This document shows positions 1,118-60,772 of a DNA stretch of 64,000 nucleotides, piece by piece. Under the pieces are notes generated by a model. It had not been told where the DNA came from, ran no database searches, and saw only the letters and a program-made list of their open reading frames with translations. The position numbers and the translations under genes are program-made. Position 1 is the stretch's first letter. Each line of letters begins with the position of its first letter. This DNA comes from Minisyncoccia bacterium (GTDB taxonomy: Bacteria > Patescibacteriota > Minisyncoccia > Phycocordibacterales > PALSA-1337): the NCBI GenBank assembly GCA_044228445.1, contig JBGAUV010000001.1, positions 143,827-207,826 of the forward strand, read 5' to 3'.

Positions 1118-2983
1118 TTGAAAAAAATCAAAGAAACAGCGAAAACAATATTTTTCGCAGCTAAGTACTCGTTTTCTTTTTGCTATCGGAATTGCAAAAC
1201 GGAAACATTGTTACGAATAAATCTAGTATTGTTCGGAACATTCATGTCTTATTTGACCATATATTCGGTTGGATATATCGTAAATACAGTACAAAAAGTA
1301 CTGTTAAATAAGACAAAGTTTGATTCACTCACTGAATTTTTATTTGGTGATATGAATAAACCTTTAACTTTTCTAGTGGTATTACCTTTTGTGGGTGTAT
1401 TACTAGGAAGATTAAATTGGTTTTTTAGGTCGAGATGGAATCAAAAACTTCGGTTTGCAAATAGTAGAGAGGTTAATGATCATCGAGCTAAACTCGATAT
1501 AGCAACAATTAAGAGTAAGAAGTTTGATGATCTTACTAGGAGAATCACTGAACTACCTGATTCTTGGCAAACAAGAATTTTGTTTTCTGAAGAGATGTTC
1601 AGTTTGTTAGGAACAATAATCTCTTTTGTCTTGTTCGGAACTTCATTAATTTGGTATAAGCCAGTGTACGCACTAATTCTTTTTCTCACAGCCTTACCTA
1701 TGGCTATAGCTGAGGTTAAGTATGTGAGTATGTGGTGGATTTTATTCCAAGAACTGGTACCGATTAACAAACAGAGAAGTGTACTTGAAAAAGCGTTTGG
1801 AGGACAAACTGCTTTTGTTCAAGGAAAGATGTTCGGTCAGCACAAAACCTTGAGAGATTGTATTGATAAAAATATCTCTGATGTGATTGGAAGGAATGAT
1901 AGGATTAGAAAGATAGGAATGATTAGGGAATTCATTACTTTCACTATATCTCAAATGGGGTTTTGTGCAGTAATAATTCATGCAATTTGGTACATTGTTA
2001 ATAATGGCGGTGAAGTCGGAACATTAACAGTTATTATTGCATCAGCTAGGACTTTTCAAGGAAACTTGGAGTCAATTGTATCTCTTATTGCTGATCAATG
2101 GAATTCAGCAAAGGGAGTTAATCTCATAGAAGAAGAATTTTTTGCAACAAAATCGTCCATCAGCACACCTTATCCAGTTGTGCCGAGGTTTGATATTGTT
2201 CCTAAGATTACTTTTAAAAATGTTGGTTTTACTTACCCAGAAGGTAAAAAACAAGTACTTACGAATCTAGACTTTACCATAAATCCAGGTGAGAAAGTTG
2301 CAATTGTAGGAGATAGTGGAAATGGTAAGTCTACATTAATGGCTCTACTACTTAGACAATACGATCCAACTGTAGGAAGGATTGATATTGAAGGTGTAGA
2401 TTTGAGAAATATTGAGCCTGATGTTTGGTGTAAACTAATATCAGGTTTAACGCAAGAGTATGCCATTCTACAAAGACCTATCGGTGAAGAAATTGCTTCA
2501 TCAAGGCTTGATGCTGATTATGATGAAGAGCGTGTTCGTAAATCGGCTGAATTCGCATGTTTTCTTGGTGTTGTTAATTCTGATCCGAAGGGTTTCAGAT
2601 TACAGATAGGAACAGAATTTGGTGGTAAAGATTTCTCTGGTGGCGAAACCCAGAGACTCGCTCTTGCTAGGGTGTTTTATCGGAATACTCCTATACTCAC
2701 ATTGGATGAACCTGATGCTAGACTTGATCCTGAATCTGCAAATGAAGTAATGGAAAATATATTTGCAATCCAGGGCAAAACTATCATTATCATAACTCAT
2801 CACGTATCACGCGCTTTGCGTTGTGATAAGGTGATAGTCATGAAAAATGGTAGGGTGGTTGAAATAGGTGCTCCAGGTGAACTCAGAGACAAGCAAGGTT
2901 TTTTCTCAAGAATGCTTGTTGCTGATATGAAACGTCAGGGGAAAGATAAATCTCCTGAATCAGATACTGCAGGATCTGAATAA
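1118..2983 (+). CDS. ABC transporter, fused permease/ATP-binding protein (peptide/bacteriocin-type exporter family, no peptidase domain)
   Basis: TTG start after agaggaggaag RBS; N-terminal multi-TM region; Walker A GDSGNGKST; ABC signature FSGGETQRLALARV; Walker B ILTLDEPDARLD. Confidence 0.9.
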   Translation: MKKIKETAKTIFFAAKYSFSFCYRNCKTETLLRINLVLFGTFMSYLTIYSVGYIVNTVQKVLLNKTKFDSLTEFLFGDMNKPLTFLVVLPFVGVLLGRLNWFFRSRWNQKLRFANSREVNDHRAKLDIATIKSKKFDDLTRRITELPDSWQTRILFSEEMFSLLGTIISFVLFGTSLIWYKPVYALILFLTALPMAIAEVKYVSMWWILFQELVPINKQRSVLEKAFGGQTAFVQGKMFGQHKTLRDCIDKNISDVIGRNDRIRKIGMIREFITFTISQMGFCAVIIHAIWYIVNNGGEVGTLTVIIASARTFQGNLESIVSLIADQWNSAKGVNLIEEEFFATKSSISTPYPVVPRFDIVPKITFKNVGFTYPEGKKQVLTNLDFTINPGEKVAIVGDSGNGKSTLMALLLRQYDPTVGRIDIEGVDLRNIEPDVWCKLISGLTQEYAILQRPIGEEIASSRLDADYDEERVRKSAEFACFLGVVNSDPKGFRLQIGTEFGGKDFSGGETQRLALARVFYRNTPILTLDEPDARLDPESANEVMENIFAIQGKTIIIITHHVSRALRCDKVIVMKNGRVVEIGAPGELRDKQGFFSRMLVADMKRQGKDKSPESDTAGSE

Positions 2984-2994
2984 TAATCCTCAAA

Positions 2995-3039
2995 CAAAAA
3001 GACCGCCAGCACAATGTGCTTTGGCGGTTTTTCTTTTTA
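2995..3039 (+). terminator. Rho-independent terminator (copy 2; one mismatch versus 972..1012)
   Basis: aaagACCGCCAgcacaatgtgctTTGGCGGTttttcttttt immediately 3' of the ABC exporter. Confidence 0.6.
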
Positions 3040-3042
3040 TTT

Positions 3043-3087
3043 TGTGCGCCTAGTTGGAATCGAACCAACGACCCACTCCTTAAAAGG
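3043..3087. repeat. attR-like 45-bp direct repeat, identical to the 3' portion of tRNA-Lys at 14087..14131
   Basis: tgtgcgcctagttggaatcgaaccaacgacccactccttaaaagg matches the tRNA-Lys gene from the acceptor 3' end through the anticodon stem; sequence diverges right after. Confidence 0.85.
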
Positions 3088-3266
3088 AAACAGCAATAGC
3101 TGTTTTCTTAGGAAACGCTTATATTATCTTGCTTAAATTAACTTTCGGTTGAAAAAGAGCGGACCTTTGAACGACCTGTTTTCCAAATTTATAAACTTTA
3201 GAAAACTATTCGTTTTTAGACTAATTAACTTGTAAAATGTCCGACTGACGTAGACATTATACCAAG

Positions 3267-4199
3267 CTATCCAAATGATAGCTTGTCTATATCTTCTCCC
3301 ATGGATTCAGTTCTCATGGAACGAATGTATTTCATTGTCATTAAAATACTGGTATGACCCAACAGTTTTTGTATCTTGAAGGCGCTTACATTGTTCTCGT
3401 CGAGTTTGCAGGCAAAAGTATGTCGAAACATGTGGAGGTGTAGTTTGACCCCCGACTTTTTTATAAGAGCATTTGTCCAGTGTTTTAAACCTTGACGGCT
3501 CAATCCCTTGTCTCCTTTGTTGGAGGCTATCAAACATTCCGTTCGTAAGCCGAGCGCCTCCCTTGCTTCAAAGTACTCCTGTATGTGTAAGAGTAGAGTG
3601 GGGTGAATTTTGAGCTTCCTAGTAATCTTGGATTTCGAGGTTTCTCCTCTTATCGTCATGACAGCTCTATCCTTGTTAAAATCAGAAACACGTAGAGATA
3701 TAAATTCACCCTTTCTTATTCCCAGAAATAATAAAAGACTCACCATCATAGTATCCCGTCGCCGGATAAATGAGTTACTCGATTTTAGTACGATTGCGCT
3801 ATAAATTTTTTGAATATCAGAATCTTCTATTTTTCGAAAATCATCATACTTTACGCTAGGTGGTCTTATGTCATTTAAAGGATTAACAGATATACAACCT
3901 TTTTTCTCTAGCCAATTAAAAAATACATTCAATTTACTCCACTGCGTTTTAATAGTTGAGTTCTTTACTCCTTTCTTTATTTTATTTTTTCCGACTATTC
4001 TCGTTCGAGTCTGGATTCGTTTGAAAAACTCTATAAGCATTTCGGTGCTTAAAAACTTAAGTGTAGAAATTTCTGGCATTATTTTTAAAAAGAGATTGAA
4101 TACAGCTCTATAACCCCTGAGCGTTTCAGGGCTTAGTCGTGTAGAGTATTGCATTACATCCTCAAACTCATTAAAGAGTTTTCGTAGATCATTCTCCAT
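3267..4199 (-). CDS. Tyrosine-type site-specific recombinase/integrase
   Basis: C-terminal catalytic region ...HLHMFRHTFACKL...LLGHTSILMTMKYIRS (R..H..R..Y); N-terminal SAM-like core-binding domain. Confidence 0.9.
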   Translation of the reverse strand: MENDLRKLFNEFEDVMQYSTRLSPETLRGYRAVFNLFLKIMPEISTLKFLSTEMLIEFFKRIQTRTRIVGKNKIKKGVKNSTIKTQWSKLNVFFNWLEKKGCISVNPLNDIRPPSVKYDDFRKIEDSDIQKIYSAIVLKSSNSFIRRRDTMMVSLLLFLGIRKGEFISLRVSDFNKDRAVMTIRGETSKSKITRKLKIHPTLLLHIQEYFEAREALGLRTECLIASNKGDKGLSRQGLKHWTNALIKKSGVKLHLHMFRHTFACKLDENNVSAFKIQKLLGHTSILMTMKYIRSMRTESMGEDIDKLSFG

Positions 4200-6182: not shown

Positions 6183-8054
6183 ATGAAAAAACAGCATTGG
6201 ATCATCCCGCTTCTCTTGGTGGCATTCATCAGGGCGGAATTCACCACAGTCCAGGCCTACTCGGCTTGGGACCAGTCGCAGGTCACGTATGATGCCTCTC
6301 GGGGTGTTTACGTCGATCACTACAAAATCCCTTTGGACAATTTCATTGCAGCAGGTGCGGCCAGTAACCCTGACCAAGCCAAAGAAATCGCTGCAATGTA
6401 TAACGGTCCTCGGGACATTCCGGCGAAGCGAAAGCTCGTCGTGAAGTTTCGGACAGACGTGTTCCGTAAGGAAGAGAACTACGCATGCGCAAGTATGATG
6501 TTTCTCACCAAGCCTGTCTCGAAGCGTCGTCTCGTTCTCGTGAACGTCGAACAGACAATTAACGAGAATATCCCAACTGACGATCGTCAGTATCGGGCCT
6601 GGCCTCATCTCGGACTTCTCTTTGTGGGCACAGCTGCTCAAGAAGAAGGCTGGGAGGTAGTCATGTGGGACGAGCTCGTCAAAGGCTTCGCGCCGATGGA
6701 GCAGCTCGTTCAGCCAGGTGACGTTGTTGGTTTCAGTTGTGTTGTGACAGGAATGGAACGTAGCATTGAGTTGGCTCGGAAAGCAAAGGAACTTGATGCT
6801 CGGTATGTGATCGTGGGAAATGATTCCGCGATCTTCCGAGCAAACCAGATTCTAGCGCTGCCCGACAAGCCGGTTGATGTTGTGTTCACTTCGAATAGCC
6901 TCACGGCCATTCGGAGATTCTTCCGAGAGATTGAAAACGCAAATCTCGAATCGCTGCAAATTCCTGGTGTCCAAGTGACATTGGGGCAAGTGCCGCAATC
7001 GAATGAGCGTGATCGTCTCTTGGTGGATCTTTCCATTCGCAAGCGCGACAAAGCTGAAGGACGGTTTGAAAACGACGACGTGTTCGTTGTTCCGAAGCTC
7101 GATCTCTATCCGCACTGGAATGAGGTCTGGTCCAACTACCGCGCGACGTTCGGACACAAGCACAGTAATCCTGATACGGTGAAGAACGGCATGAGCCTCT
7201 TCGCCCAGGGTTGCACCCGAACTCGTGGAAGTGATGTTTGCAGCTACTGCACCATCTACGGCGTTGCGGACATCCGCATGCCACAGAGGGAATACCTTCG
7301 TCGGACCGCTGAGGCCTACAAAGCTTTCGGCATCGACATGGTGTTCAACGTAACTGACAGCGTCTACGAGATGGGCGGTGTGGCTAAAGCGCTCCAGGAG
7401 CTCGGTATTACCTGGAATGCAATGACCATCTACGGTCGATCGCAGGGAATAACTCAGAACCCAGGTCTTCTCGAACAATGGCAACGAGTCGCAACAGAGC
7501 GACTCCTCGTCAACGTTGGGATGGACTCGGGAGACGACAAACTTCTGCGAGAAGGAGTTGTGAAATCCTCGATCAACAGAAAGAGGACTCGCCTTGAGGA
7601 AAACCAAGAGGCGGTGCGACTCATCCGGCAAGCCGGTGCGCATCTTCACTACTCACTCATCTTCGGAACGCCCGGCGAGACATTGGAGACCTGCGAAAGC
7701 AGTATCCGGTTTCTCGAGTGGACGATTGCGACACTCGGTCACCAGTTGGACATCTGCGAAACAGACATCTACTGGCTTAACTTCGGGTCACCTGCAAGCA
7801 AGGTGTTCCATGACTATTCGGAAGCGCAGCGACTTGCTGCGATGGCCGGAAAGTCGATCTCCAGAGAGGAGTGGTACGAAAACTTCGCTCGTCACCAAGA
7901 GGCACTCGTCGTGCCCGAGGCGACGGAAGAAGCCTGGTACCGCCACTTCACGAAGATCGATCTTGCGACTGCGCAGGCTTATAACCAGCGTTGCGTCGAG
8001 ATCATGGCTCGCCATAACGGCAGCATTCGAGGTCGTGCGTACAAGCCGATCTAA
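6183..8054 (+). CDS. B12-binding-domain radical-SAM-like enzyme with atypical cysteine motif and a signal-peptide-like N-terminus
   Basis: PHLGLLFVGTAAQEEGWEVVMWDE...GFSCVVTGMERSIELARKAKELDARYVIVGNDSA resembles the cobalamin-binding domain of class B rSAMs; cysteine cluster is C-x8-C-x2-C (GCTRTRGSDVCSYC) instead of CxxxCxxC; N-terminus MKKQHWIIPLLLVAFIRAEFTTVQA/YS looks like a Sec signal; ~55% GC. Confidence 0.5.
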   Translation: MKKQHWIIPLLLVAFIRAEFTTVQAYSAWDQSQVTYDASRGVYVDHYKIPLDNFIAAGAASNPDQAKEIAAMYNGPRDIPAKRKLVVKFRTDVFRKEENYACASMMFLTKPVSKRRLVLVNVEQTINENIPTDDRQYRAWPHLGLLFVGTAAQEEGWEVVMWDELVKGFAPMEQLVQPGDVVGFSCVVTGMERSIELARKAKELDARYVIVGNDSAIFRANQILALPDKPVDVVFTSNSLTAIRRFFREIENANLESLQIPGVQVTLGQVPQSNERDRLLVDLSIRKRDKAEGRFENDDVFVVPKLDLYPHWNEVWSNYRATFGHKHSNPDTVKNGMSLFAQGCTRTRGSDVCSYCTIYGVADIRMPQREYLRRTAEAYKAFGIDMVFNVTDSVYEMGGVAKALQELGITWNAMTIYGRSQGITQNPGLLEQWQRVATERLLVNVGMDSGDDKLLREGVVKSSINRKRTRLEENQEAVRLIRQAGAHLHYSLIFGTPGETLETCESSIRFLEWTIATLGHQLDICETDIYWLNFGSPASKVFHDYSEAQRLAAMAGKSISREEWYENFARHQEALVVPEATEEAWYRHFTKIDLATAQAYNQRCVEIMARHNGSIRGRAYKPI

Positions 8055-8077
8055 TCCATCAGTTCTTTAACTCAAAC

Positions 8078-8117
8078 ACAGTACTCCGCGAGGTGATCCC
8101 TCTCGGAGTATTTTTTC
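8078..8117 (+). terminator. Rho-independent terminator 3' of the rSAM-like gene
   Basis: tACTCCGcgaggtgatccctctCGGAGTAttttttctt; marks the right edge of the GC-rich cassette. Confidence 0.6.
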
Positions 8118-8639
8118 TTAAGCTTGTCATGCACGGTGTGACTATACAGTCTCGGGGAAAGAAGTGGGTGAGAAACTCGATATTAATCTTAGTTTCTCCT
8201 TTACACCCGTCATATACTCCAGATCTGTGAAATGACCATAATCTATTTTCCTGTTTTCTTAACTTCGTAACCATTGTGAATGGCCACTTTAGTTGTTCCT
8301 CCAATACCCAACCATGTTCCGACTATCAGTATAGCTAGACCACCTACGATTGAGATCATAAGTTCGCTCATGTGCAGGATTATAGAGGAAAGGAAATACA
8401 AGGGTACTGGTAAATATGTAAAATACATTGTATTATTTTAGAACAATTAAATATAGAAGTAGCCTAACCCCCCAAGCAATTGGCGGCATGGCGAAGAAGT
8501 CCTATCGAGCACAGAAACCCGTCACGGGTCGCTTGATAGGCCGTATAGGGAAACTTATACGAGAGGCTTCGAGCCTCTACCGTGGCGGATTTCTGTTCAC
8601 GCCTCGGATTACAAGCCCTATCAAGCTAAAAATATCAAT

Positions 8640-8876
8640 ATGTTTGGAAAAGATTTTGTGTGCCTCAATTGTGGTACTGTGGGGAAGCGTAAGTTGCAGG
8701 TAAGGGGTAATTTAGTATTAGAAATACTGCTTTGGTTCTTCTTTCTTATTCCAGGTATTATTTATTCAATATGGCGCCACGCCTCTACTAAACAGATATG
8801 CAAAGCTTGTGGTAGTCTTAATATGGTTCCAGTCGATTCTCCGAAAGGACAAGAGGTGGTGAAGAAAAATAAATAA
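8640..8876 (+). CDS. Zinc-ribbon membrane protein (two CxxC pairs flanking one TM helix)
   Basis: CLNCG...TM(LVLEILLWFFFLIPGIIYSIW)...CKACGS; stop abuts the thermonuclease start. Confidence 0.4.
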   Translation: MFGKDFVCLNCGTVGKRKLQVRGNLVLEILLWFFFLIPGIIYSIWRHASTKQICKACGSLNMVPVDSPKGQEVVKKNK

Positions 8877-8877
8877 C

Positions 8878-9738
8878 ATGAAAAAACTATTTTTGTTTGG
8901 GGCGAGTAGCGTCTTTGTCCTTTTTCTTACTGTACTTTTCTTTTCCTCGACACCTACGGAACAGGGGATTAAGGCACTGGAGAGTAAGTCTACACTTGTA
9001 AGCGAAGCGACAATTCCTTCCGTTGCACCAATTGCAGAAGGTCCGAAGGTTTATTCTGTGGTAAGTGTAATTGATGGTGATACTTTGAAAATAAGTATGA
9101 ATGGTAAAGAGGAGACTCTTCGTCTGATCGGTATTGATACCCCGGAGACAGTTGATCCACGAAAGACGGTGCAGTGTTTTGGAAAAGAAGCATCAAACAA
9201 AGCAAAGGAGTTGCTGGTCGGTAAGAGGGTTCGCATTGAAGTTGATCCTACACAAGGGGAACGAGATAAGTATGATCGTCTGCTCGTTTACATTCATCGT
9301 GAGGATGGGCTTTTTTACAACAAACATATGATCGAGCAGGGATATGCTCATGAGTATACTTACAACACCCCCTACATATATCAAGCTGAATTCAAAGCTG
9401 CTCAAGCTAGAGCTCGTACGAACCAGAAAGGACTATGGTCTCCAGCAACCTGTAATGGAGATACAACATCTAGCCCGATTGTTTTGACTCCTCCGCCCAC
9501 ACAAAGCCCCGCGGTAGCCCCTACACCTGCACCTACAGTATCACCTGTTCAAGAGCCTGCATCTGCTCCTCAATCAGTGGGGAAGTATTACACTTCTTCT
9601 TACGGCAGTTCCAAATACTACTACCCAGAAGCGTGTGGTGGTTGGAAAAGTCTCTCGCCGAAGTATTTAAAATCCTTTGACTCGCTAGAGGCGTTACTCG
9701 CCACATATTCGCGAACAAAAAGCCCTCAGTGTCAGTAG
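8878..9738 (+). CDS. Secreted/membrane-anchored thermonuclease (staphylococcal nuclease fold) with Pro-rich linker and C-terminal Cys-containing Ada-like metal-binding motif
   Basis: N-terminal TM/signal; SNase motifs VIDGDT and RLIGIDTPE; C-terminus KYYYPEAC...FDSLEALLATYSRTKSPQC. Confidence 0.85.
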   Translation: MKKLFLFGASSVFVLFLTVLFFSSTPTEQGIKALESKSTLVSEATIPSVAPIAEGPKVYSVVSVIDGDTLKISMNGKEETLRLIGIDTPETVDPRKTVQCFGKEASNKAKELLVGKRVRIEVDPTQGERDKYDRLLVYIHREDGLFYNKHMIEQGYAHEYTYNTPYIYQAEFKAAQARARTNQKGLWSPATCNGDTTSSPIVLTPPPTQSPAVAPTPAPTVSPVQEPASAPQSVGKYYTSSYGSSKYYYPEACGGWKSLSPKYLKSFDSLEALLATYSRTKSPQCQ

Positions 9739-9898: not shown

Positions 9899-10417
9899 CT
9901 AGATTGGATCAGGTTCGTGTATTTTTCCCTGAACTCTTTCTCTCGCTTCTTCAAATGATTTGTTGTCAGTGGGAGGAGAGTATCGGACGATATCGTTATA
10001 TCGATCATGTATGTGTCTTGTCGCAGTTTCGAGTTCTTTATCGGTCATTGCTTTCGAAAACGTATCTCTAAGAGACCTTACATCCTGTTTGAGAGTCGTA
10101 AAATTCTTTGCGGCATTCAAGTGATCGTAATATTCCTTGAGTGGATTTAGTACGCTACCAACTGCGGCGACGACCGCAGAGATGACGCCTAGCCAAACGA
10201 CCCATTCAGGTGCATCTTTTATTCCAATATATGTACCAGATACAGCAGCAATAACAGCCGGAATCGTCTGGAATCTTGTGAGTCGTCGTCGTTGTTTATC
10301 CGCGATGACATGATGAGTTTCAGCAGTATAAACGCAATTTTGATATATCACCTCGCATTCTTCTGTGTATGTTTCTTTCATGATAGTGGAATTAATTCTC
10401 CGAATATTTTTCTCCAC
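9899..10417 (-). CDS. 2TM effector with SLATT-like architecture (predicted membrane-disrupting partner of the SMODS cyclase)
   Basis: Soluble N-terminal region, two adjacent TM helices (IPAVIAAVSGTYIGI / WVVWLGVISAVVAAVGSVL) and a conserved C-terminal helix; overlaps the upstream cyclase gene by 40 nt in an operon. Confidence 0.55.
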   Translation of the reverse strand: MEKNIRRINSTIMKETYTEECEVIYQNCVYTAETHHVIADKQRRRLTRFQTIPAVIAAVSGTYIGIKDAPEWVVWLGVISAVVAAVGSVLNPLKEYYDHLNAAKNFTTLKQDVRSLRDTFSKAMTDKELETATRHIHDRYNDIVRYSPPTDNKSFEEARERVQGKIHEPDPI

Positions 10418-11304
10418 GCTAGGTGTTTTCCCGCATCGGTTGAGGCGGTAAGAGCGTCACGACTATGGTATTTCAAATATTCCAATGCTTGTAAAACCTC
10501 TAGTTTTGTTGCAAGGTCTATTCGAATTACCGGAGAATTACTCCCTGGGATTGAGAGGTGATTATCCAGATAAGATTCGATATTGTGGATGAATCCAGCC
10601 ACAATTGCAGGGTACGTCACAAGTATAGCGTTCTTTTTGCAGCCTGCAATGATCTCGGGTACGAGCTTCGTGGCCATTATTTCAATTGGGAATGACTTGA
10701 GAGAAGGGAAGTATTCTCGCCGGATTGCCTTCATCATTTTTATTACTGGAGTAAGAATTCCACCCGTTTGGTTATTTACAGCCGAAATGTATTCGGCGTC
10801 ATGATCGTAGTCAGCCAATTCCCATGTTCCAAGGCTGTTTGGTATCCAGTAACCTCTACCTTTCGGACTATGAATAATTCCGTTTGGAGAATGTCCAATA
10901 TTATCGATGTATGCAGGTACAATTTCTACTTTGACGTTATTTGCATATTCGAAAGTGACGGTGGGGTGATCTTGTTGTGGTGACATGGCACCGTACCGTT
11001 CGCTTTCTCGCACGATTGAATGAACATGATCCATCGCCATTTGAGCGGTAACACCGCCTGGACCCCAACGATCAAATTGACCGAGTACAACCAGGATATC
11101 AATATCGAAAGCGTCGTCTTCTCGTGGCTGTATTCTCGTCTTTCGATAGTTGTGGAGAGAACCAATCAATTTGGTGTCTTTGATGTTTTGACCATTATTT
11201 TCAATAACGCCCCTGACAGCGTTGTGCTGCCGTGATATGGTTTCACTAAACGTGTCGGTCAGTTCAAGATTCGCTTTCAGTTTTAAAAAGGTATCAGTGA
11301 TCAT
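10378..11304 (-). CDS. SMODS/CD-NTase-like nucleotidyltransferase (cyclic oligonucleotide synthase, CBASS-type)
   Basis: Pol-beta NTase signature G-S-x14-D-x-D: LIGSLHNYRKTRIQPREDDAFDIDILVV; ~300 aa single domain; directly followed by the 2TM effector. Confidence 0.7.
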   Translation of the reverse strand: MITDTFLKLKANLELTDTFSETISRQHNAVRGVIENNGQNIKDTKLIGSLHNYRKTRIQPREDDAFDIDILVVLGQFDRWGPGGVTAQMAMDHVHSIVRESERYGAMSPQQDHPTVTFEYANNVKVEIVPAYIDNIGHSPNGIIHSPKGRGYWIPNSLGTWELADYDHDAEYISAVNNQTGGILTPVIKMMKAIRREYFPSLKSFPIEIMATKLVPEIIAGCKKNAILVTYPAIVAGFIHNIESYLDNHLSIPGSNSPVIRIDLATKLEVLQALEYLKYHSRDALTASTDAGKHLAWRKIFGELIPLS

Positions 11305-11708: not shown

Positions 11709-12050
11709 ATGAAAAATGAATCAAATAAGGCTTCCTCAATAGGAGGGCAAATTAGACAGGCGCGCGAAGAAATGAATATGTCGCAATTGGACTTGGCTAA
11801 GGCGACAGGATTTGAGTCAGCCACTGCCATTTCTCTCATGGAAAGCGATCAGAGAAAAGTGACAATCGATACTTTACAGAAACTCGGGGATGTTCTTCAT
11901 AAAGATATAAAATATTTTCTTGGGGCAGAAGAAAAGCCAACAGTGACTACCGAGTTTGCGTTAAGAGCAGATCCTCATCTAAACAAAGAAGACAAAGAGG
12001 CACTTCTTCATCTTATTGATTTGGCTAAGAAGCGTAAAAATGGAAAATAA
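11709..12050 (+). CDS. XRE-family HTH transcriptional regulator (ImmR-like)
   Basis: IRQAREEMNMSQLDLAKATGFESATAISLMESDQRKVTIDTLQKLGDVL is a Cro/C1-type HTH. Confidence 0.8.
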   Translation: MKNESNKASSIGGQIRQAREEMNMSQLDLAKATGFESATAISLMESDQRKVTIDTLQKLGDVLHKDIKYFLGAEEKPTVTTEFALRADPHLNKEDKEALLHLIDLAKKRKNGK

Positions 12051-12540
12051 CATTGATGACCTCGGTCCTCGTAAAAAATTCGCAAAAGGTCTCGCAGAGA
12101 AGCTTTTAAAAGATGTTGGAATTACGGAAGTTCCTGTTTCGTTGCAGATAGTAATAGAGTATCTTCAAACCCAGTATGACCTCGATGTGCGAAAAGTCTC
12201 GTTGAGTAATGCCGTCTCCGGATTACTAGTAACTTGTAGAGACGTCGATGGAGAATATTCCACGATCATTTTTAATGAAAATCATCCTTGGTGCAGGAAG
12301 AGATTTACGATTGCACATGAAATTGGTCACCTATTGATGGGTCATACTTGTAATAAAAATGATCCCACAGCCACTTATAATGAAAAGGAAGCAAATTGCT
12401 TTGCGGCGGAACTTCTCGTGCCATGTAAGATTTTAAAAAAGACCTTTAAAACTGTCACTAAAATTCCTGACCTATCAAAACTTTTTAGGGTTAGTGCTGA
12501 AACGATGGGATATCGAATAATGGAATGTCGTCTAATTTAA
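12040..12540 (+). CDS. ImmA/IrrE-family metallopeptidase (COG2856; anti-repressor protease)
   Basis: HEIGHLLMGH (HExxH) and downstream EANCFAAELLVP; start chosen at internal ATG (MENNIDD) overlapping the XRE gene by 11 nt. Confidence 0.75.
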   Translation: MENNIDDLGPRKKFAKGLAEKLLKDVGITEVPVSLQIVIEYLQTQYDLDVRKVSLSNAVSGLLVTCRDVDGEYSTIIFNENHPWCRKRFTIAHEIGHLLMGHTCNKNDPTATYNEKEANCFAAELLVPCKILKKTFKTVTKIPDLSKLFRVSAETMGYRIMECRLI

Positions 12541-12542
12541 AG

Positions 12543-13043
12543 TTAATCAGTAGAGATAATCTTAGGCATCAGTCTCGCCCATTTTTTCGTACTGCTCTCT
12601 TTTGATGCTGGAATCATCATTAGCTCAGGCTTTTCAAAACTAGTTGATTCTTCTATAAAAAATAAAGCCGAGTCCCATTTCATAATGGTATTTGCTGCTG
12701 CAATTCGTTCGCTTTGTGTGGTGGAGCGGACCTCACCGAAGCTGGTTATCTGCTTTCCTTTGACTATATCAACCAATTCATCCGTAAGAAGGCGGTGGCG
12801 CTCCCTAAGTGCAGTCAAGCGTGCCTCCCTTGTCTGTCTACCCACTAATTCAATATTTTCTTTTCGAACTTTGGATACGAGACGTGAGACATAGTGCCAA
12901 TCAAGAGTACCACCATTTACATTTCTATATCCCACAAGGTAGAGCTGAACCCGTAGTTTTTGGACCGAGATAAGTGGATGAAGAGCCAACTCATCTCTTA
13001 TTGTACTTTTTATTCCGTCTTCTACTTCTGGTTGTTTTCTCAT
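12543..13043 (-). CDS. Hypothetical protein (island cargo, immediately downstream of the integrase gene, overlapping it by 4 nt)
   Basis: ORF only; no recognisable motif. Confidence 0.3.
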   Translation of the reverse strand: MRKQPEVEDGIKSTIRDELALHPLISVQKLRVQLYLVGYRNVNGGTLDWHYVSRLVSKVRKENIELVGRQTREARLTALRERHRLLTDELVDIVKGKQITSFGEVRSTTQSERIAAANTIMKWDSALFFIEESTSFEKPELMMIPASKESSTKKWARLMPKIISTD

Positions 13044-13969
13044 TTAAGTTCGTGGTTATTCGCGGTTATTAATGGCGTAATGTCGTTGAGAGGGTGCTTT
13101 ACCATCTGCGACCTCAGGTGTTCTGCACTTGCTGCCAAGTAGATCGTTGTAGTCTTTATATCACTATGACCCATCATTTTTGAGAGGGAATAGATGTCAC
13201 AGCCTCCTTCGAGCATTAAGGTGGCGAAGGTGTGTCGTAGCTTATGAACGCTGAACGCTGTCCCTGAAGCCTGCCGCATCTGCGCCACCAGTCTTTTTAA
13301 ACCATTTGCAGTGAATCCTGTATCTCTTCGAAGGGAAGAAAAGAATTCTGGATTTACTTTATTGAGTCTCTTTCTTTCCTCCACGTACTTCTTCAGACTT
13401 TGAGCAAGGGTGTAGCTTATTGGCACGATCCGGTCTTTCGCTCCTTTGCCTTGCCTCACAAAGAGAGTGAGATTGTCCAGATCGATATCTGTATATTTTA
13501 AATTCAAGAGTTCCTGCTTACGGAGACCAGCAAAAATGAAGGTTGCGAATATGGCGTGGTTTCTATAGCGAAGGAATTTATACTCATAGGGGTAGTTATA
13601 GACTATCTCGAGAAGCCTGAGAGTGCTTTGCTGTGAGAGTTTGGGAGGTAACCGTTTCTCCATCTTTGGTTTTTCAATATTCAAGATGGGATTTTTCTCC
13701 ATGTAGCCTTGCTTTACGCACCAGCGAAAGAAAACTAGAAGTGATTTGTGGTAGACGATATAAGTATTTACAGTCCACTTCCGCTCTGTACGGCCGCGAT
13801 AAAATAAAGCTCGTATATTCTCTTCATTCACATCATTTAAATTCGTGATTCCTGAAAACTTACTGAAGCACCTCGTTACATATCTGTATCTCCGTATGGT
13901 GTCTTTGGAATAACCTCGGATTGATAGGGAGTAGTCACAGAATTTCTGCGACAAAATTTCAATATCCAT
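13040..13969 (-). CDS. Tyrosine-type site-specific recombinase/integrase (tRNA-proximal)
   Basis: ...HKLRHTFATLMLEGGCDIYSLSKMMGHSDIKTTTIYL... (R..H..R..Y); 5' end lies 118 bp from the tRNA-Lys 3' end. Confidence 0.9.
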   Translation of the reverse strand: MDIEILSQKFCDYSLSIRGYSKDTIRRYRYVTRCFSKFSGITNLNDVNEENIRALFYRGRTERKWTVNTYIVYHKSLLVFFRWCVKQGYMEKNPILNIEKPKMEKRLPPKLSQQSTLRLLEIVYNYPYEYKFLRYRNHAIFATFIFAGLRKQELLNLKYTDIDLDNLTLFVRQGKGAKDRIVPISYTLAQSLKKYVEERKRLNKVNPEFFSSLRRDTGFTANGLKRLVAQMRQASGTAFSVHKLRHTFATLMLEGGCDIYSLSKMMGHSDIKTTTIYLAASAEHLRSQMVKHPLNDITPLITANNHELK

Positions 13970-14087
13970 GTTTTTTCTCGACGAATACTTATCCCCAGTT
14001 TATTTTGACCCTACGGCCTGTTCACCGCAGGAGGTGGTCGTTCAAAATCTCTCTTTTTCCGAATCAGCCCTAGAAATATAACGAATG

Positions 14088-14160
14088 TGCGCCTAGTTGG
14101 AATCGAACCAACGACCCACTCCTTAAAAGGGAGATGCTCTACCAACTGAGCTATAGGCGC
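14088..14160 (-). tRNA. tRNA-Lys (anticodon UUU)
   Basis: Reverse complement GCGCCTATAGCTCAGTTGGTAGAGCATCTCCCTTTTAAGGAGTGGGTCGTTGGTTCGATTCCAACTAGGCGCA; anticodon loop CUUUUAA; good acceptor/D/T arms. Confidence 0.9.
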
Positions 14161-14336
14161 ATTTAATTTACTTACTAACTTTAAACCATACTACCATAGT
14201 TTGTTCTGGTCCTACCAAAACAGCTATAGGCGCATTTATTTATTTGTAAAAATACAATTTAACTTCTATAACCGTCGCTTGTCTACCAAAACAGCTACAG
14301 GCGCATTGAAACACAACAAAAAAGAATATACCTTTT

Positions 14337-27467: not shown

Positions 27468-27800
27468 TTGTTAGAAAGAGAGGTTATCATGAACGTCGAC
27501 AAACAAAATTCTATAAATCGAATTAGGTCACTGTATGGTGATGAAACTGCCCAAGTCTATTCGGGTTTAGTTAATGATTATCCTGAAACTATCCCAATGA
27601 GTGTCATGTTTGCCAAATTTTCTGAAGCACGCAGGATAGTCCAAGCAAAGAATCCTGCGCTATCACCAGCTGTTGTGTCTTTCAGATCAAAACCGGCAGA
27701 TACAAATATCAATGAGGGGAAAGTACTTACTTCGTTAGAAGCAGAACGAAGGCGAGTGAGGTTGATGTTTAGGTCACAGGATGTGCCTTTTAACAGTTAA
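27468..27800 (+). CDS. Hypothetical protein
   Basis: ORF followed by terminator gaCCCCGTGttcgCACGGGGtttttt (27817..27842). Confidence 0.35.
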   Translation: MLEREVIMNVDKQNSINRIRSLYGDETAQVYSGLVNDYPETIPMSVMFAKFSEARRIVQAKNPALSPAVVSFRSKPADTNINEGKVLTSLEAERRRVRLMFRSQDVPFNS

Positions 27801-28352
27801 AATTTTCTTACTAAAGACCCCGTGTTCGCACGGGGTTTTTTAAATAGAAAACCTATCACGATGTGACACGTGATAGGCCTACCAATTTTGGTATTTATCA
27901 TTACGAGTGATGTTCGAACGGGTTTTTTTACCCTCCATACCCCAGCCTTACTTGGCGGTTCCTCGGGATGACTAGATTTCATTATTTTACTAATCCTCTA
28001 GCAATCACATTCCGCATAATTTATATCATAAAAATTTATTTATTTTAAATGAAAAAGCCGAGGATATAGTCCTACGGCTATAAACTATCTTATTCCCGCA
28101 ATTAAATATTTGTACCATGCGGCCTTTGTCCGATGAATGGCTTTTCAAATATATTTCTATATGAAGAATTTCTAATTGATCTCAATAGTAACTTCCTGTT
28201 CTTTTGTCTAAACTTATTTGGTTGTGGTATTGCAACTGTGTATATAGTTGCATCGGAGTCTGACTGGTTTGTATTCATTATTTCTACTCTATTTTTATTC
28301 TAATTTGAAGATATAACTGAGTCAAATAATTTTAGAGGTTCGTATAAAAGTG

Positions 28353-30878: not shown

Positions 30879-30953
30879 GGTGGCTATAGTTTAGTGGTAA
30901 AACCTCGGTCTGTGGATCCGAAGTTGTGGGTTCGATTCCCACTAGCCACCCCA
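30879..30953 (+). tRNA. tRNA-His (anticodon GUG) with extra 5' G
   Basis: GGTGGCTATAGTTTAGTGGTAAAACCTCGGTCTGTGGATCCGAAGTTGTGGGTTCGATTCCCACTAGCCACCCCA. Confidence 0.8.
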
Positions 30954-32531
30954 TTCGAGAATCAGTTGTTGAAAAGCGATATTTCGCGCGTCAACAGAGC
31001 TGTATTCTCTCAGTCCTAACCTCTCAAATTCAGCCTTGAATTCAGGGTATACCTTTTTGATTGGCTGTAACCACTCATTGCCGGTGATAAAGACTTTTCC
31101 GCCCTTTATGTAGAAGTTCTGGCCTAATGCCGAGAATATTTCACGCTTTCTTTGAAGATCACCGACAATAAACTCCTTTCGAGCATAACAAGCAAAGCTA
31201 AAGACTTGTTCGGTAAGGTCCAGCCACTTTGAAGCACGTCCCTCGGTTTCTCGGAGTTTTGCCTGGAGTCTCGCAATCTTATCTTTCAGGATGTCACGCT
31301 CTTTGACGAATGTCTCGTCGTCAATAAGATCGCGATAACGCATCTTGGTTAAGTTATCGAGTTCGGTTTGCGACTCTACAACAGTCTTGTGTTGCATCTC
31401 ATAGATTTTAGTACGGTCCTCAATTTCTTTATCATTATTACGATTGAGAGCCTCAATAGCCCAGATCTGAAACTCGGGGAGTATGGTGTACTCCTCAAGT
31501 AAAAGTTCAATCTGTGTTTCTAAATCATCTAGTCTGATCGGGTTTCTTCTTGAACATCGCTCAACACCTTTCTTGTTTCCGCCACAGTGGTAGTAAACAT
31601 AATTTTTCATTTGACCAGTGCTTTTGATTTTCTTCATCCTTTCGGTGGCGGTATACATCGAACCACACAAACCACAGCGAATAAGCCCGGTGAAAGCGAA
31701 CTCATGAGTTTTAGCTCTTGGTTTTCCGGTCCTATCAAAGATAGCCTGGACCTGATCGAATTCCTCAAGAGTGATCATCGGCTTATGATTGCCTTTATAT
31801 ATTTTCTTACCCCAATGGAAGTTGCCGGTGTAGAAAATATTATTAAACATTTTGTAAATCACGCTCGGTGCCATCTCAACTCCACCACTGTGCTTACTCT
31901 TAAGGGAACGATAGCCCCACTCTTTACTTGCTATCTCTGCAATCTTTTTCGGAGTGTAACTACCAGTAAGCATGAGGTCCCACATTTTACGAACTAGGTG
32001 AAAACGTTCTGGATCGGGAAGGATTGTGTGCTCAAGTCGCTCGTTGATATAGCCAGCCGGTGCCTTTGAAGGGAACCATCCACGCTCTGCCTTGCCATGC
32101 ATGCCTCGCTTGGTATTCTTGCGAAGTTCGATAATGAACTGATTTGCCATTCCACTCTCAACACTAAAAAGCAGGACGTTATCATCTGGCAAATATTCTC
32201 GTTCCATTGTTTGGATAGATTGAATGATTCCTTTCTGAAGCATCCAGCTTAGCTTTCCGCTATCAATAGGATTGCGTGCTAGGCGATTGATTTGCCAGCA
32301 GAGAATTCCTTTTGCTTCGCCTTTTTCAATACGCCGAAGCATATCATTAAAGATTGGTCGCCCGGGTTGCTTGGCCGATTTTGCCTCGGTCAGTATTTCT
32401 TTGATTGAAATACCAAGAGAGTTGGCTCGCTCTTTGAGCCTATTAACCTGATCCTCGATTGATTGCTCTTGTCGGTCCTCTGATTCAGAAGACTTGCGAG
32501 CATACATGAAATATTCAACATTTGTAGCCAT
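30942..32531 (-). CDS. Large serine recombinase/integrase (resolvase catalytic domain + recombinase domain + Zn ribbon)
   Basis: N-terminus YARKSSESEDRQEQSIEDQ (catalytic Ser); C-terminal Cys cluster CGLCGS...YYHCGG...C; stop overlaps the 3' end of tRNA-His by 12 nt. Confidence 0.9.
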   Translation of the reverse strand: MATNVEYFMYARKSSESEDRQEQSIEDQVNRLKERANSLGISIKEILTEAKSAKQPGRPIFNDMLRRIEKGEAKGILCWQINRLARNPIDSGKLSWMLQKGIIQSIQTMEREYLPDDNVLLFSVESGMANQFIIELRKNTKRGMHGKAERGWFPSKAPAGYINERLEHTILPDPERFHLVRKMWDLMLTGSYTPKKIAEIASKEWGYRSLKSKHSGGVEMAPSVIYKMFNNIFYTGNFHWGKKIYKGNHKPMITLEEFDQVQAIFDRTGKPRAKTHEFAFTGLIRCGLCGSMYTATERMKKIKSTGQMKNYVYYHCGGNKKGVERCSRRNPIRLDDLETQIELLLEEYTILPEFQIWAIEALNRNNDKEIEDRTKIYEMQHKTVVESQTELDNLTKMRYRDLIDDETFVKERDILKDKIARLQAKLRETEGRASKWLDLTEQVFSFACYARKEFIVGDLQRKREIFSALGQNFYIKGGKVFITGNEWLQPIKKVYPEFKAEFERLGLREYSSVDARNIAFQQLILEWGG

Positions 32532-59896: not shown

Positions 59897-60772
59897 ATGG
59901 ATAAAATAATTGATATAACAAAACCAAGTAAAGGCTATAGTCTAATAGATTCTGGTGATGGGGAAAAGCTAGAGAAATTCAGTGAATATATATTGAGAAG
60001 ACCAGATCCACAAGCTCTTTGGAAAAAGAGACTTGATGAAAAAGAATGGAAAAAGGCCAATGCGAGTTTTGAAAGAAATGAAGCACAAGCTGAATGGAAG
60101 TATAAAGATAAAAAACTAGATAAATGGTCTATAGATTTTTCTGATTTAAAATTTTGGATAAAACCAACAGCCTTTAAACATACTGGGATATTTCCTGAAC
60201 AAACAGTTAATTGGGATTGGACTAGAAAAATTATAAAAGAAAATATTGATAGGAAAGAAATAAATGTATTAAATTTATTTGGTTATACAGGTGGAGCAAG
60301 TTTGGCTTGTGCTCAAGCAGGAGCAAAAGTAGTTCATGTTGATAGTTCAAAATCAGCAATAACTTGGGCAAAAGAAAATGCAGAAATATCAGGTTTACAC
60401 GATAAACCAATAAGATGGATACTAGAAGATGTAAGACTTTTTGTTGAAAGAGAAATAAAAAGAGGGAATAAGTACGATGCCATAATTATGGATCCTCCAG
60501 CTTTTGGACATGGAGCAAATGATGAAGTTTGGAAAATAGAAAATGATTTAATTCCTTTAATAGATAAATGCATTGAAATTTTAAATGAAAAACCTTTATT
60601 CTTTTTGATAAATGGTTATTCAGCAGGTTATTCTTGTATAGCATATAAAAATATTTTAGATGTTTTGGTTAATAAATTCGGCGGAAGTACAGAAATAGGG
60701 GAATTGGCTATACAAGAAAATGATTCAAATCGTTTATTGCCTTGTGGTATTTTTGCTAGATGGAAAGGGTAA
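59897..60772 (+). CDS. Class I SAM-dependent methyltransferase (RlmI/RlmL-like rRNA MTase)
   Basis: LNLFGYTGGASLACA...IIMDPPAFG. Confidence 0.7.
   Translation: MDKIIDITKPSKGYSLIDSGDGEKLEKFSEYILRRPDPQALWKKRLDEKEWKKANASFERNEAQAEWKYKDKKLDKWSIDFSDLKFWIKPTAFKHTGIFPEQTVNWDWTRKIIKENIDRKEINVLNLFGYTGGASLACAQAGAKVVHVDSSKSAITWAKENAEISGLHDKPIRWILEDVRLFVEREIKRGNKYDAIIMDPPAFGHGANDEVWKIENDLIPLIDKCIEILNEKPLFFLINGYSAGYSCIAYKNILDVLVNKFGGSTEIGELAIQENDSNRLLPCGIFARWKG

Follow-up and report, generated by a model that had tools for sequence, protein, structure and literature searches.

A LOOT RNA locus in a Minisyncoccia genome, a probable bistable leader of a Zn-ribbon/nuclease operon

We analysed a 64-kb stretch of DNA from a Minisyncoccia bacterium (hereafter the window, at its full length), in which the plus strand of one intergenic region carries a member of the LOOT RNA family (Rfam RF03000). 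The region, 8429-8639, lies between a small minus-strand open reading frame (ORF) at 8243-8428 and the gene for a 78-aa Zn-ribbon protein at 8640-8876. With cmscan, 8461-8578 (plus strand) was assigned to LOOT at 76.0 bits (E-value 1.6e-12; the gathering score of RF03000 is 46.4 bits) over model positions 1-121 of 121, and this match is both the sole non-tRNA Rfam result and the sole LOOT in the whole window. An initial annotation, made from the letters of the sequence, had described a GC-rich, highly structured non-coding element here and had proposed an Rfam scan and a covariation analysis as checks; the structured non-coding RNA on the plus strand is borne out, and the scan identifies it as LOOT. 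Absent from that annotation were a promoter and leader, a long-range helix between 8511-8527 and 8580-8596, and a second copy of one strand of hairpin P2 at 8617-8626. The features of the locus are the following:

8429..8436, plus strand: extended -10 promoter element TGTATTAT (TG-n-TATTAT), from the sequence and homologous loci
8443..8462, plus strand: conserved 5' leader ACAAUUAAAUAUAGAAGUAG (family motif ACAAyUGAAUA), outside the Rfam model
8461..8578, plus strand: LOOT core with hairpins P1-P4, from cmscan with RF03000
8462..8492, plus strand: P1, with internal loop CCUAAC/GCAUGG and a GCAA apical loop, from the Rfam match, the fold and the alignment
8501..8540, plus strand: P2, with strand a (8501-8510), apical hairpin (8517-8529) and strand a' (8531-8540), the proposed antiterminator state
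8511..8527, plus strand: 5' strand (b) of helix T, overlapping the internal loop and the apical hairpin of P2 including its loop, from the minimum free energy (MFE) fold of 8443-8600 and family covariation
8542..8561, plus strand: P3, an 8-bp stem with a GAAA tetraloop (8550-8553), from the Rfam match and the alignment
8562..8578, plus strand: P4, a 7-bp stem with loop UCG, from the Rfam match, the fold and the alignment
8580..8596, plus strand: 3' strand (b'') of helix T, outside the Rfam model, with 8580-8588 pairing to 8519-8527 and 8590-8596 to 8511-8517
8590..8597, plus strand: U-rich tract UUUCUGUU after helix T, the proposed termination point
8580..8607, plus strand: hairpin P5 (b'':b'''), with pairs 8580-8589/8597-8607, containing GGCG...CGCC and holding the U tract in its loop
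8617..8626, plus strand: a#2, CCUAUCAAGC, which repeats the P2 5' strand and is a perfect complement of a' (8531-8540), its 3' end lying 13 nt upstream of the ATG
8428..8703, plus strand: 91-aa ORF, spurious, not a gene
8640..8876, plus strand: 78-aa protein with two CxxC pairs and a Pmp3-like hydrophobic segment
8878-9738, plus strand: secreted-type SNase-domain nuclease with a hydrophobic N-terminus, following the 78-aa gene

The stems listed in the initial annotation were all found in their places in this GC-rich region, which has a GC content of 0.55 compared with about 0.39 in the flanks. The sequence CCTATCGAGC at 8501-8510 pairs with GCTTGATAGG at 8531-8540 over 10 bp, including one G.U (8507/8534), and encloses CCCG-tca-CGGG at 8518-8528; CGTATAGG-GAAA-CTTATACG corresponds to 8542-8561 and (A)GAGGCT-tcg-AGCCTC(T) to 8562-8578, while GGCG at 8584-8587 pairs with CGCC at 8600-8603 as part of the longer hairpin 8580-8589/8597-8607. 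The plus strand of 8440-8645 folds with -67.7 kcal/mol, against -48.8 +/- 4.4 kcal/mol for 200 dinucleotide shuffles (z -4.28), none of which equals it, whereas the minus strand of the same segment reaches a z of only -2.43.

LOOT is one of the 224 motifs reported by Weinberg et al. 2017 (PMC5737381); it appears in Rfam 14 as a 'metagenomic-based RNA' (PMC7779021), and for Rfam 15 R-scape was used to refine its consensus structure (PMC11701678). The Rfam model comprises four hairpins, of which P1 has a conserved internal loop CCUAA.../...GCAUGG, P2 is long, P3 carries a GAAA loop and P4 a stable tetraloop, and the Rfam type is 'Gene; sRNA' (sRNA, small RNA). The name LOOT refers to the lineages OD1, OP11 and TM7. 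No paper on the function of LOOT was found in a literature search. The locus is a new copy of this known orphan family, and the structured element as such is already explained by it; what we add here is its extended anatomy and a testable two-state leader model. The core agrees with RF03000 without any difference, in the four hairpins, the CCUAA/GCAUGG internal loop and the GAAA loop. In contrast, the 121-position model stops at P4, and thus lacks the leader, helix T with its U tract, P5 and a#2; the family is typed there as an sRNA gene, whereas its genomic context in the loci compared here suggests a 5' leader.

Homologues were retrieved with a pattern made of the conserved P1 and P3 motifs, which in the window matches the LOOT locus only. 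The pattern occurs at 91 places in one-genome-per-species contigs, with two obvious false matches and a few odd bin labels, at no fewer than 120 places in metagenomes, and at 1 place in 2.9 million viral contigs; on account of this single match a phage origin of LOOT was rejected. In total, about 170 LOOT copies were compared, nearly all from metagenome-assembled genomes (MAGs) of Patescibacteria, or candidate phyla radiation (CPR) bacteria, and from metagenomes. Among the approximately 80 matches listed, nearly all are titled Patescibacteria/CPR, including Parcubacteria/Paceibacterota, Saccharibacteria, Uhrbacteria, Adlerbacteria, Microgenomates and others. When ten loci selected by the pattern were rechecked with Rfam, all ten were LOOT (69-89 bits), and an additional LOOT that the pattern had missed was present at 14145-14265 of contig L143 (88.9 bits). 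This pattern-independent copy has the long-range helix T and the U tract, as well as an exact UAUGG strand of the tetraloop receptor considered below; contig L143 carries two LOOT copies (2977-3093 and 14145-14265), 11 kb apart. The closest LOOT relative is L079, with 74% identity, and proteins of the window are 50-75% identical to proteins in LOOT-bearing MAG loci, which makes a Patescibacteria origin of the window likely. For covariation we used a MAFFT alignment of 88 sequences (A2), which was fitted to no structure.

The covariation that the initial annotation had named as a check is found, the helices of LOOT being supported by compensatory changes. In A2, P1, the outer part of P2, P3 and P4 contain pairs changed on both sides, and in four of the five measures none of 500 shuffles reached the observed value, the count of pairs changed on both sides being reached in 1 of 500. 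The P1 helices are 93-100% paired and covary in the homologue alignment, and P3 is paired in 98.7% of cells, with compensatory changes in five of its eight pairs. The apical hairpin that Rfam draws in P2 is 81.6% paired in A2, with little covariation, and P2 is variable in sequence while the scaffold of P1, P3 and P4 is conserved. ORFs starting at the invariant AUG of GCAUGG have a median of 15 codons, 43% being shorter than 10 codons, and show no conserved length over 169 copies, and a leader peptide or other coding function within LOOT was rejected on this basis.

The internal loop of P1 also resembles a known tertiary-contact module. The 11-nt GAAA tetraloop receptor has the sequence CCUAAG_UAUGG (PMC11381326), and the P1 loop of LOOT reads CCUAA(A/C)C...G(C/U)AUGG, with an invariant GAAA on P3; the difference is that the canonical closing G.U is replaced in LOOT, most copies having A or C opposite C. 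In the window the loop is CCUAAC...CAUGG, with two departures from CCUAAG...UAUGG, and its possible partner is the GAAA on P3. In our view, this resemblance is a lead rather than a demonstrated contact.

Upstream of the core, the homologous loci indicate a promoter linked to the RNA. A -10-like hexamer precedes LOOT in 64% of 157 loci, versus 17% in a control region; a perfect TATAAT is found at this place 28 times, versus once in the control, and 40 of the 101 -10-like sites carry the TG extension. The leader motif ACAAyUGAAUA is present in 112 of the 157 loci, at a spacing from the -10 element that peaks at 6-8 nt, and the transcript is predicted to start near 8443. No covarying partner was found for the conserved leader, and its pairing with the region before the ATG was discarded as a candidate, since cognate and non-cognate combinations give the same energy (-6.34 and -6.32 kcal/mol). 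A simple promoter and terminator scan of 8000-9000 misses the promoter, which has no good -35, and helix T, which is long-range. In L012, L028, L034, L046, L052 and L070 an optional small hairpin with a GNRA-type loop (e.g. CCCGAGAGGG) stands between the 5' leader and P1, 20-30 nt upstream of CCUAA.

Downstream of P4, we identified a tail that is complementary, allowing G.U, to the upper part of P2, including the Rfam apical loop and the A-rich internal loop. In the window the resulting helix T has 16-18 bp and is present in the MFE fold of 8443-8600. The duplex between tail and P2 top has a mean of -28.0 kcal/mol for cognate strands and -18.9 kcal/mol for non-cognate strands in 87 genome loci, and 80 independent metagenome copies give -27.8 versus -17.5 kcal/mol, the cognate duplex beating the non-cognate median in 80 of 80. 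In A2, the 18 pairs of T are paired in 95.1% of cases, compared with 82.7% in shuffles and 45-56% in slid registers; 13 of the 18 have changed on both sides, and none of 500 shuffles reaches the observed value in any measure. Some of the covarying positions are drawn as unpaired loop in the Rfam fold. At three T positions U.G is found in 64-76 of the 88 sequences, which indicates that the plus strand is the functional one, and A:U pairs beside the U tract are almost never replaced by G:C, so that the U itself is under constraint at these positions, in line with a terminator. Both the window and the family show a GC-rich helix with a U tract directly behind it: in the window 8519-8527/8580-8588 precedes AUUUCUGUU, and in the family GGGC and then UUUUUGU are conserved to at least 90%. 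Most relatives have CUUUUUGU at the position of the U tract, and the T columns of this tract are conserved to at least 90%.

P2 and T use 8511-8527 in common, strand a is contiguous with strand b, and 3-5 nt link b to a', a helix geometry which implies that complete P2 and complete T cannot coexist. Both helices are nevertheless kept by compensatory change, and they are close in energy: by constrained folding of 166 copies the difference between the T fold and the P2 fold is -3.0 +/- 3.8 kcal/mol, with 40% of copies within 3 kcal/mol, and in the window the two folds have -52.6 and -49.2 kcal/mol, respectively. The unconstrained MFE fold contains T in half of the copies.

Two further pairings involve the strands of P2 and T. 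P5, in which b'' pairs with b''', can form only in read-through transcripts; in the window it has -13.1 kcal/mol (z -1.77), and in the family, when the 30 nt downstream are shuffled for comparison, its z averages -1.74, with 48% of 86 loci below -1.64. It was judged by these shuffle z-scores because its 3' strand lies at variable offsets that MAFFT leaves unaligned, which precludes column-wise covariation. The second is a#2, counted wherever 8 nt or more, no further than 35 nt from the ATG, are perfectly complementary to a'; it is present in 11 of 76 and 15 of 61 loci, versus 0.6% of permuted controls, and mostly ends 0-7 nt from the ATG. The MFE fold of the full leader in the window, 8443-8660, uses a':a#2. 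The idea that a#2 is a stronger partner of a' than a was rejected, the two being equally stable (-19.4 vs -18.9 kcal/mol, Wilcoxon p 0.46). Other targets of a' in the 64 kb searched are not above chance, with five complementary sites at up to two mismatches versus 2.5 expected, two of the five being the locus itself.

The gene that follows LOOT is co-oriented with it in 73 of 79 genome loci (p 1e-15) and in 69 of 71 metagenome loci (p 2e-18), whereas upstream genes are randomly oriented (32:46 and 24:40, respectively). The first ATG-initiated ORF begins at a median of 58 nt after P4 in genomes (interquartile range 44-65) and 56 nt in metagenomes (interquartile range 40-63). In more than half of the loci, the window included, the upstream gene is divergent, which leaves the LOOT promoter as the only evident promoter for the downstream gene; no general internal promoter is visible in the stretch of approximately 35 nt that separates the U tract from the ATG. 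A homologue of the 78-aa protein of the window is also found behind LOOT in L023, and SNase genes behind LOOT in L079 and L041. Identical or near-identical P2 sequences stand before different downstream genes in L005/L026/L039 and in the window/L048/L079/L084, with L005 and L026 belonging to one genome, and the unit from the promoter to a#2 seems to move as a cassette.

We consider it probable that the LOOT locus at 8443-8626 controls the Zn-ribbon/SNase operon in cis, as a bistable leader or attenuator. A cis-regulatory leader for these genes was one of three options that the initial annotation had offered, together with an sRNA and a recombination site, and it is the one that best fits the comparative data. 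Termination, read-through, antitermination by P2, trapping by P5 and masking by a' are all steps that we infer from the pairings. In the T state, transcription would stop at about 8597 and an RNA of about 155 nt would be released, and in those transcripts that read through, the freed a' (8531-8540) would pair with 8617-8626 and cover the region where ribosomes land. In the P2 state, T would be blocked and RNA polymerase would read on, allowing expression of the Zn-ribbon/SNase operon, with the tail captured in P5 (8580-8607) and 8617-8626 left free. Docking of the P3 GAAA into the receptor-like loop of P1, the two elements flanking P2, could lock the P2 (ON) state, and the trigger would most likely be a factor, an ion (Mg2+/K+) or a ligand acting at the P1/P3 site. 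More tentatively, and with somewhat less than even confidence, we propose for the family as a whole that LOOT is a CPR-wide, promoter-linked bistable leader, a riboswitch-like or factor-dependent attenuator and not a free-standing sRNA. Its terminator would be the long-range helix on the P2 top, and the a/b 'address' would be repeated (as a#2 and b''') so that a single decision controls whether horizontally acquired genes for envelope proteins, nucleases and restriction-modification are transcribed and, in a subclass, also whether they are translated.

The proposed leader shares with attenuators and riboswitch expression platforms its place in the 5' untranslated region (UTR), two exclusive, near-isoenergetic and conserved folds, and a GC-rich helix followed by a U tract, and in a subclass of LOOT the extra helix can mask the translation start region, as in such platforms. 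It differs from them in having no known ligand, leader peptide or binding protein, in a terminator helix that is long-range and spans two hairpins, and in controlling genes without a common function. The locus thus has the GC-rich helix with U tract and the competing, exclusive conserved structure of an attenuator, and the 5' UTR co-orientation of a riboswitch, but not the pathway common to the downstream genes that a riboswitch would be expected to have. A trans-acting sRNA should have no fixed relation to its neighbours, whereas LOOT shows orientation and spacing biases towards the downstream gene. A further likeness is to leader RNAs with a dual cis/trans role, for example the sRNA/riboswitch reported in bioRxiv 10.1101/803072, in that premature termination would free a stable structured RNA with an exposed a' complementary to an mRNA site; in LOOT, however, the complementary site is found only in its own transcription unit.

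Several points weigh against this leader model. Termination and read-through are inferences, and T would be an atypical intrinsic terminator, with about 52 nt, including P3 and P4, between its strands, and with a U tract that in the window (UUUCUGUU) is weaker than the family norm. The a#2 element is missing from about three quarters of the loci, where there is little complementarity between LOOT and the start region (mean z -0.47). The homologue set was selected by a pattern in which the P1 and P3 motifs are fixed, with the L143 copy as the one pattern-independent copy checked, and Rfam types LOOT as a gene/sRNA. Finally, the downstream genes are heterogeneous, encoding small membrane or secreted proteins, nucleases, DNA methylases and proteases: a Pfam search of 82 and 69 downstream proteins gave 40 and 35 families, respectively, none of them in more than four members, and these include tRNA_anti-like OB, SNase, DUF4352, PG-binding, D12/Eco57I/N6 methylases, proteases, Zn ribbons and bPH. 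This heterogeneity speaks against a riboswitch for one particular metabolite and does not point to any signal. By a crude test, an N-terminal hydrophobic segment is present in at least 49 of 84 downstream proteins.

Some of the same points would be accounted for if LOOT were a free-standing, trans-acting sRNA gene, in which T is a constitutive terminator, the stable RNA of about 155 nt acts elsewhere, for example by titrating a protein through P1/P3/P4 or by pairing through the 3' strand of P2, and the downstream gene is a passenger of leaky read-through. LOOT has its own promoter and a terminator-like end, its scaffold is conserved while P2 varies, several copies can occur per genome (for example L005/L026, L015/L066 and the two in L143), the downstream genes are mutually unrelated, and the a#2 sites could equally be trans targets of the terminated RNA on read-through mRNAs; this explanation also accounts for the Rfam type. 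However, the 92-97% co-orientation and the fixed spacing of about 57 nt are unexpected for an independent gene, and P5 and a#2 are selected structures that exist only in read-through transcripts. Moreover, the isoenergetic P2 and T suggest a decision and not constitutive termination, and elsewhere in the 64-kb window sites complementary to a' are not in excess of expectation. We therefore regard an sRNA gene as rather unlikely.

Still less favoured, and in our view quite doubtful, is a static role in the 5' UTR, in which LOOT brings acquired genes a portable promoter and a leader that protects or insulates their mRNAs, the alternative pairings being folding intermediates. This would suit the position of LOOT before accessory genes of many kinds, frequently within islands close to tRNA or tmRNA genes, and the same P2 sequence before different genes (for example window, L079 and L084; L005/L026), but the retention of two exclusive helices by compensatory changes, together with a sequence-constrained U tract, would be needless for protection.

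A role of the DNA itself, be it in recombination, in attachment or as one of a set of dispersed CCTATC...GATAGGCC repeats, has very little to recommend it. The locus lies in an island with two tyrosine recombinases, and a second hairpin with the same stem ends is present at 27852-27879. However, the pairings rely on G.U pairs that are specific to the plus strand, frequent, and would be C.A on the other strand, which tells against the recombination site suggested initially; the plus strand folds far better than the minus strand, RNA tetraloops (GAAA, GCAA, UUCG) cap the stems, and the viral contigs gave the single match mentioned above. As for the recurrence of CCTATC...GATAGGCC, a second occurrence does exist, as the initial annotation had noticed, but it lies at 27852-27879 and not at 27845-27875. 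It has the form CCTATCACG-N8-CGTGATAGGCC, and a terminator scan reports there, on the minus strand from 27880 to 27849, a 12-bp hairpin with a T-rich run behind it. This hairpin is terminator-like on the minus strand and has no P1, P3, P4 or other LOOT feature, so that it was rejected as a second member of the family, and the small dispersed repeat or RNA family that had been suggested from it is not upheld. It does have TGATAGGCC in common with P2, yet is not LOOT; most simply, this 9-mer is a coincidence between two hairpins. The minus-strand hairpin at 27849-27880 stands back to back with a plus-strand terminator at about 27818-27845, just past an ORF at 27468-27800.

That the region codes for a 91-aa protein, with incidental stems, can be dismissed almost outright: the frame 8428-8703 is open, but, as the initial annotation had suspected, it is spurious, since the reading frame from the invariant AUG is not conserved in length, non-triplet indels are found throughout the alignment, substitutions track base-pairing and not codon structure, and gene prediction made independently on two identical contigs found none at this place. 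The DNA-level and coding explanations are thus effectively excluded.

The surroundings of the locus suggest a mobile context. A phage-type integrase and an XerC/integron-like tyrosine recombinase, at 3267-4199 and 13040-13969 (both minus strand), bracket the region, the XerC-like gene adjoining a tRNA-Lys at 14087-14160 (minus strand), and the LOOT locus is thus probably inside an integrated island. The cargo of the island includes a B12-binding radical SAM gene (6183-8054), a SLATT (9899-10417) and SMODS (10378-11304) pair, and a pair formed by a helix-turn-helix protein and an ImmA-like HEIGH peptidase (11709-12540). The ORF at 8243-8428 (minus strand), divergent from LOOT, encodes a hydrophobic 61-aa protein without a Pfam match, and was called as a gene on two independent Logan contigs. 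In three of ten metagenome loci scanned, tmRNA genes lie within a few kb of LOOT (L097:1427-1780, L098:2678-3070 and L108:7593-7981), which fits with LOOT-led genes often being in islands inserted at tRNA or tmRNA genes.

Elsewhere in the window, a large serine recombinase (XisF/Ccr-like) at 30942-32531 (minus strand) overlaps the 3' end of a tRNA-His at 30880-30953 (plus strand) by about 12 nt, which suggests a second integrated element. ARAGORN calls a 95-nt tRNA-Thr at 60272-60366 (plus strand) inside an ORF at 59897-60772, where the Rfam tRNA model reports none, and the call is probably a false positive, or else an unusual or intron-containing tRNA. The window also encodes MurE, PilM, GlgA and CopA.

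CPR bacteria have very small genomes and few recognised regulators, and not many structured RNAs besides LOOT are specific to them. The identification of LOOT here removes a spurious 91-aa gene call and, in a lineage whose promoters, transcript starts and terminators are poorly known, points to a likely example of each. The orphan family gains a testable mechanism, with exclusive folds, a hidden terminator and, in a subclass, masking of the start region, and for Rfam we suggest that the 'sRNA' type and the 121-position model be revisited, with an extension of the model in both the 5' and 3' directions. If the proposed mechanism is true, LOOT would serve generally as a switch of accessory genes, including those of secreted nucleases, membrane proteins and restriction-modification enzymes, the kinds of genes that matter for the scavenging, host-attached lifestyle of CPR bacteria.

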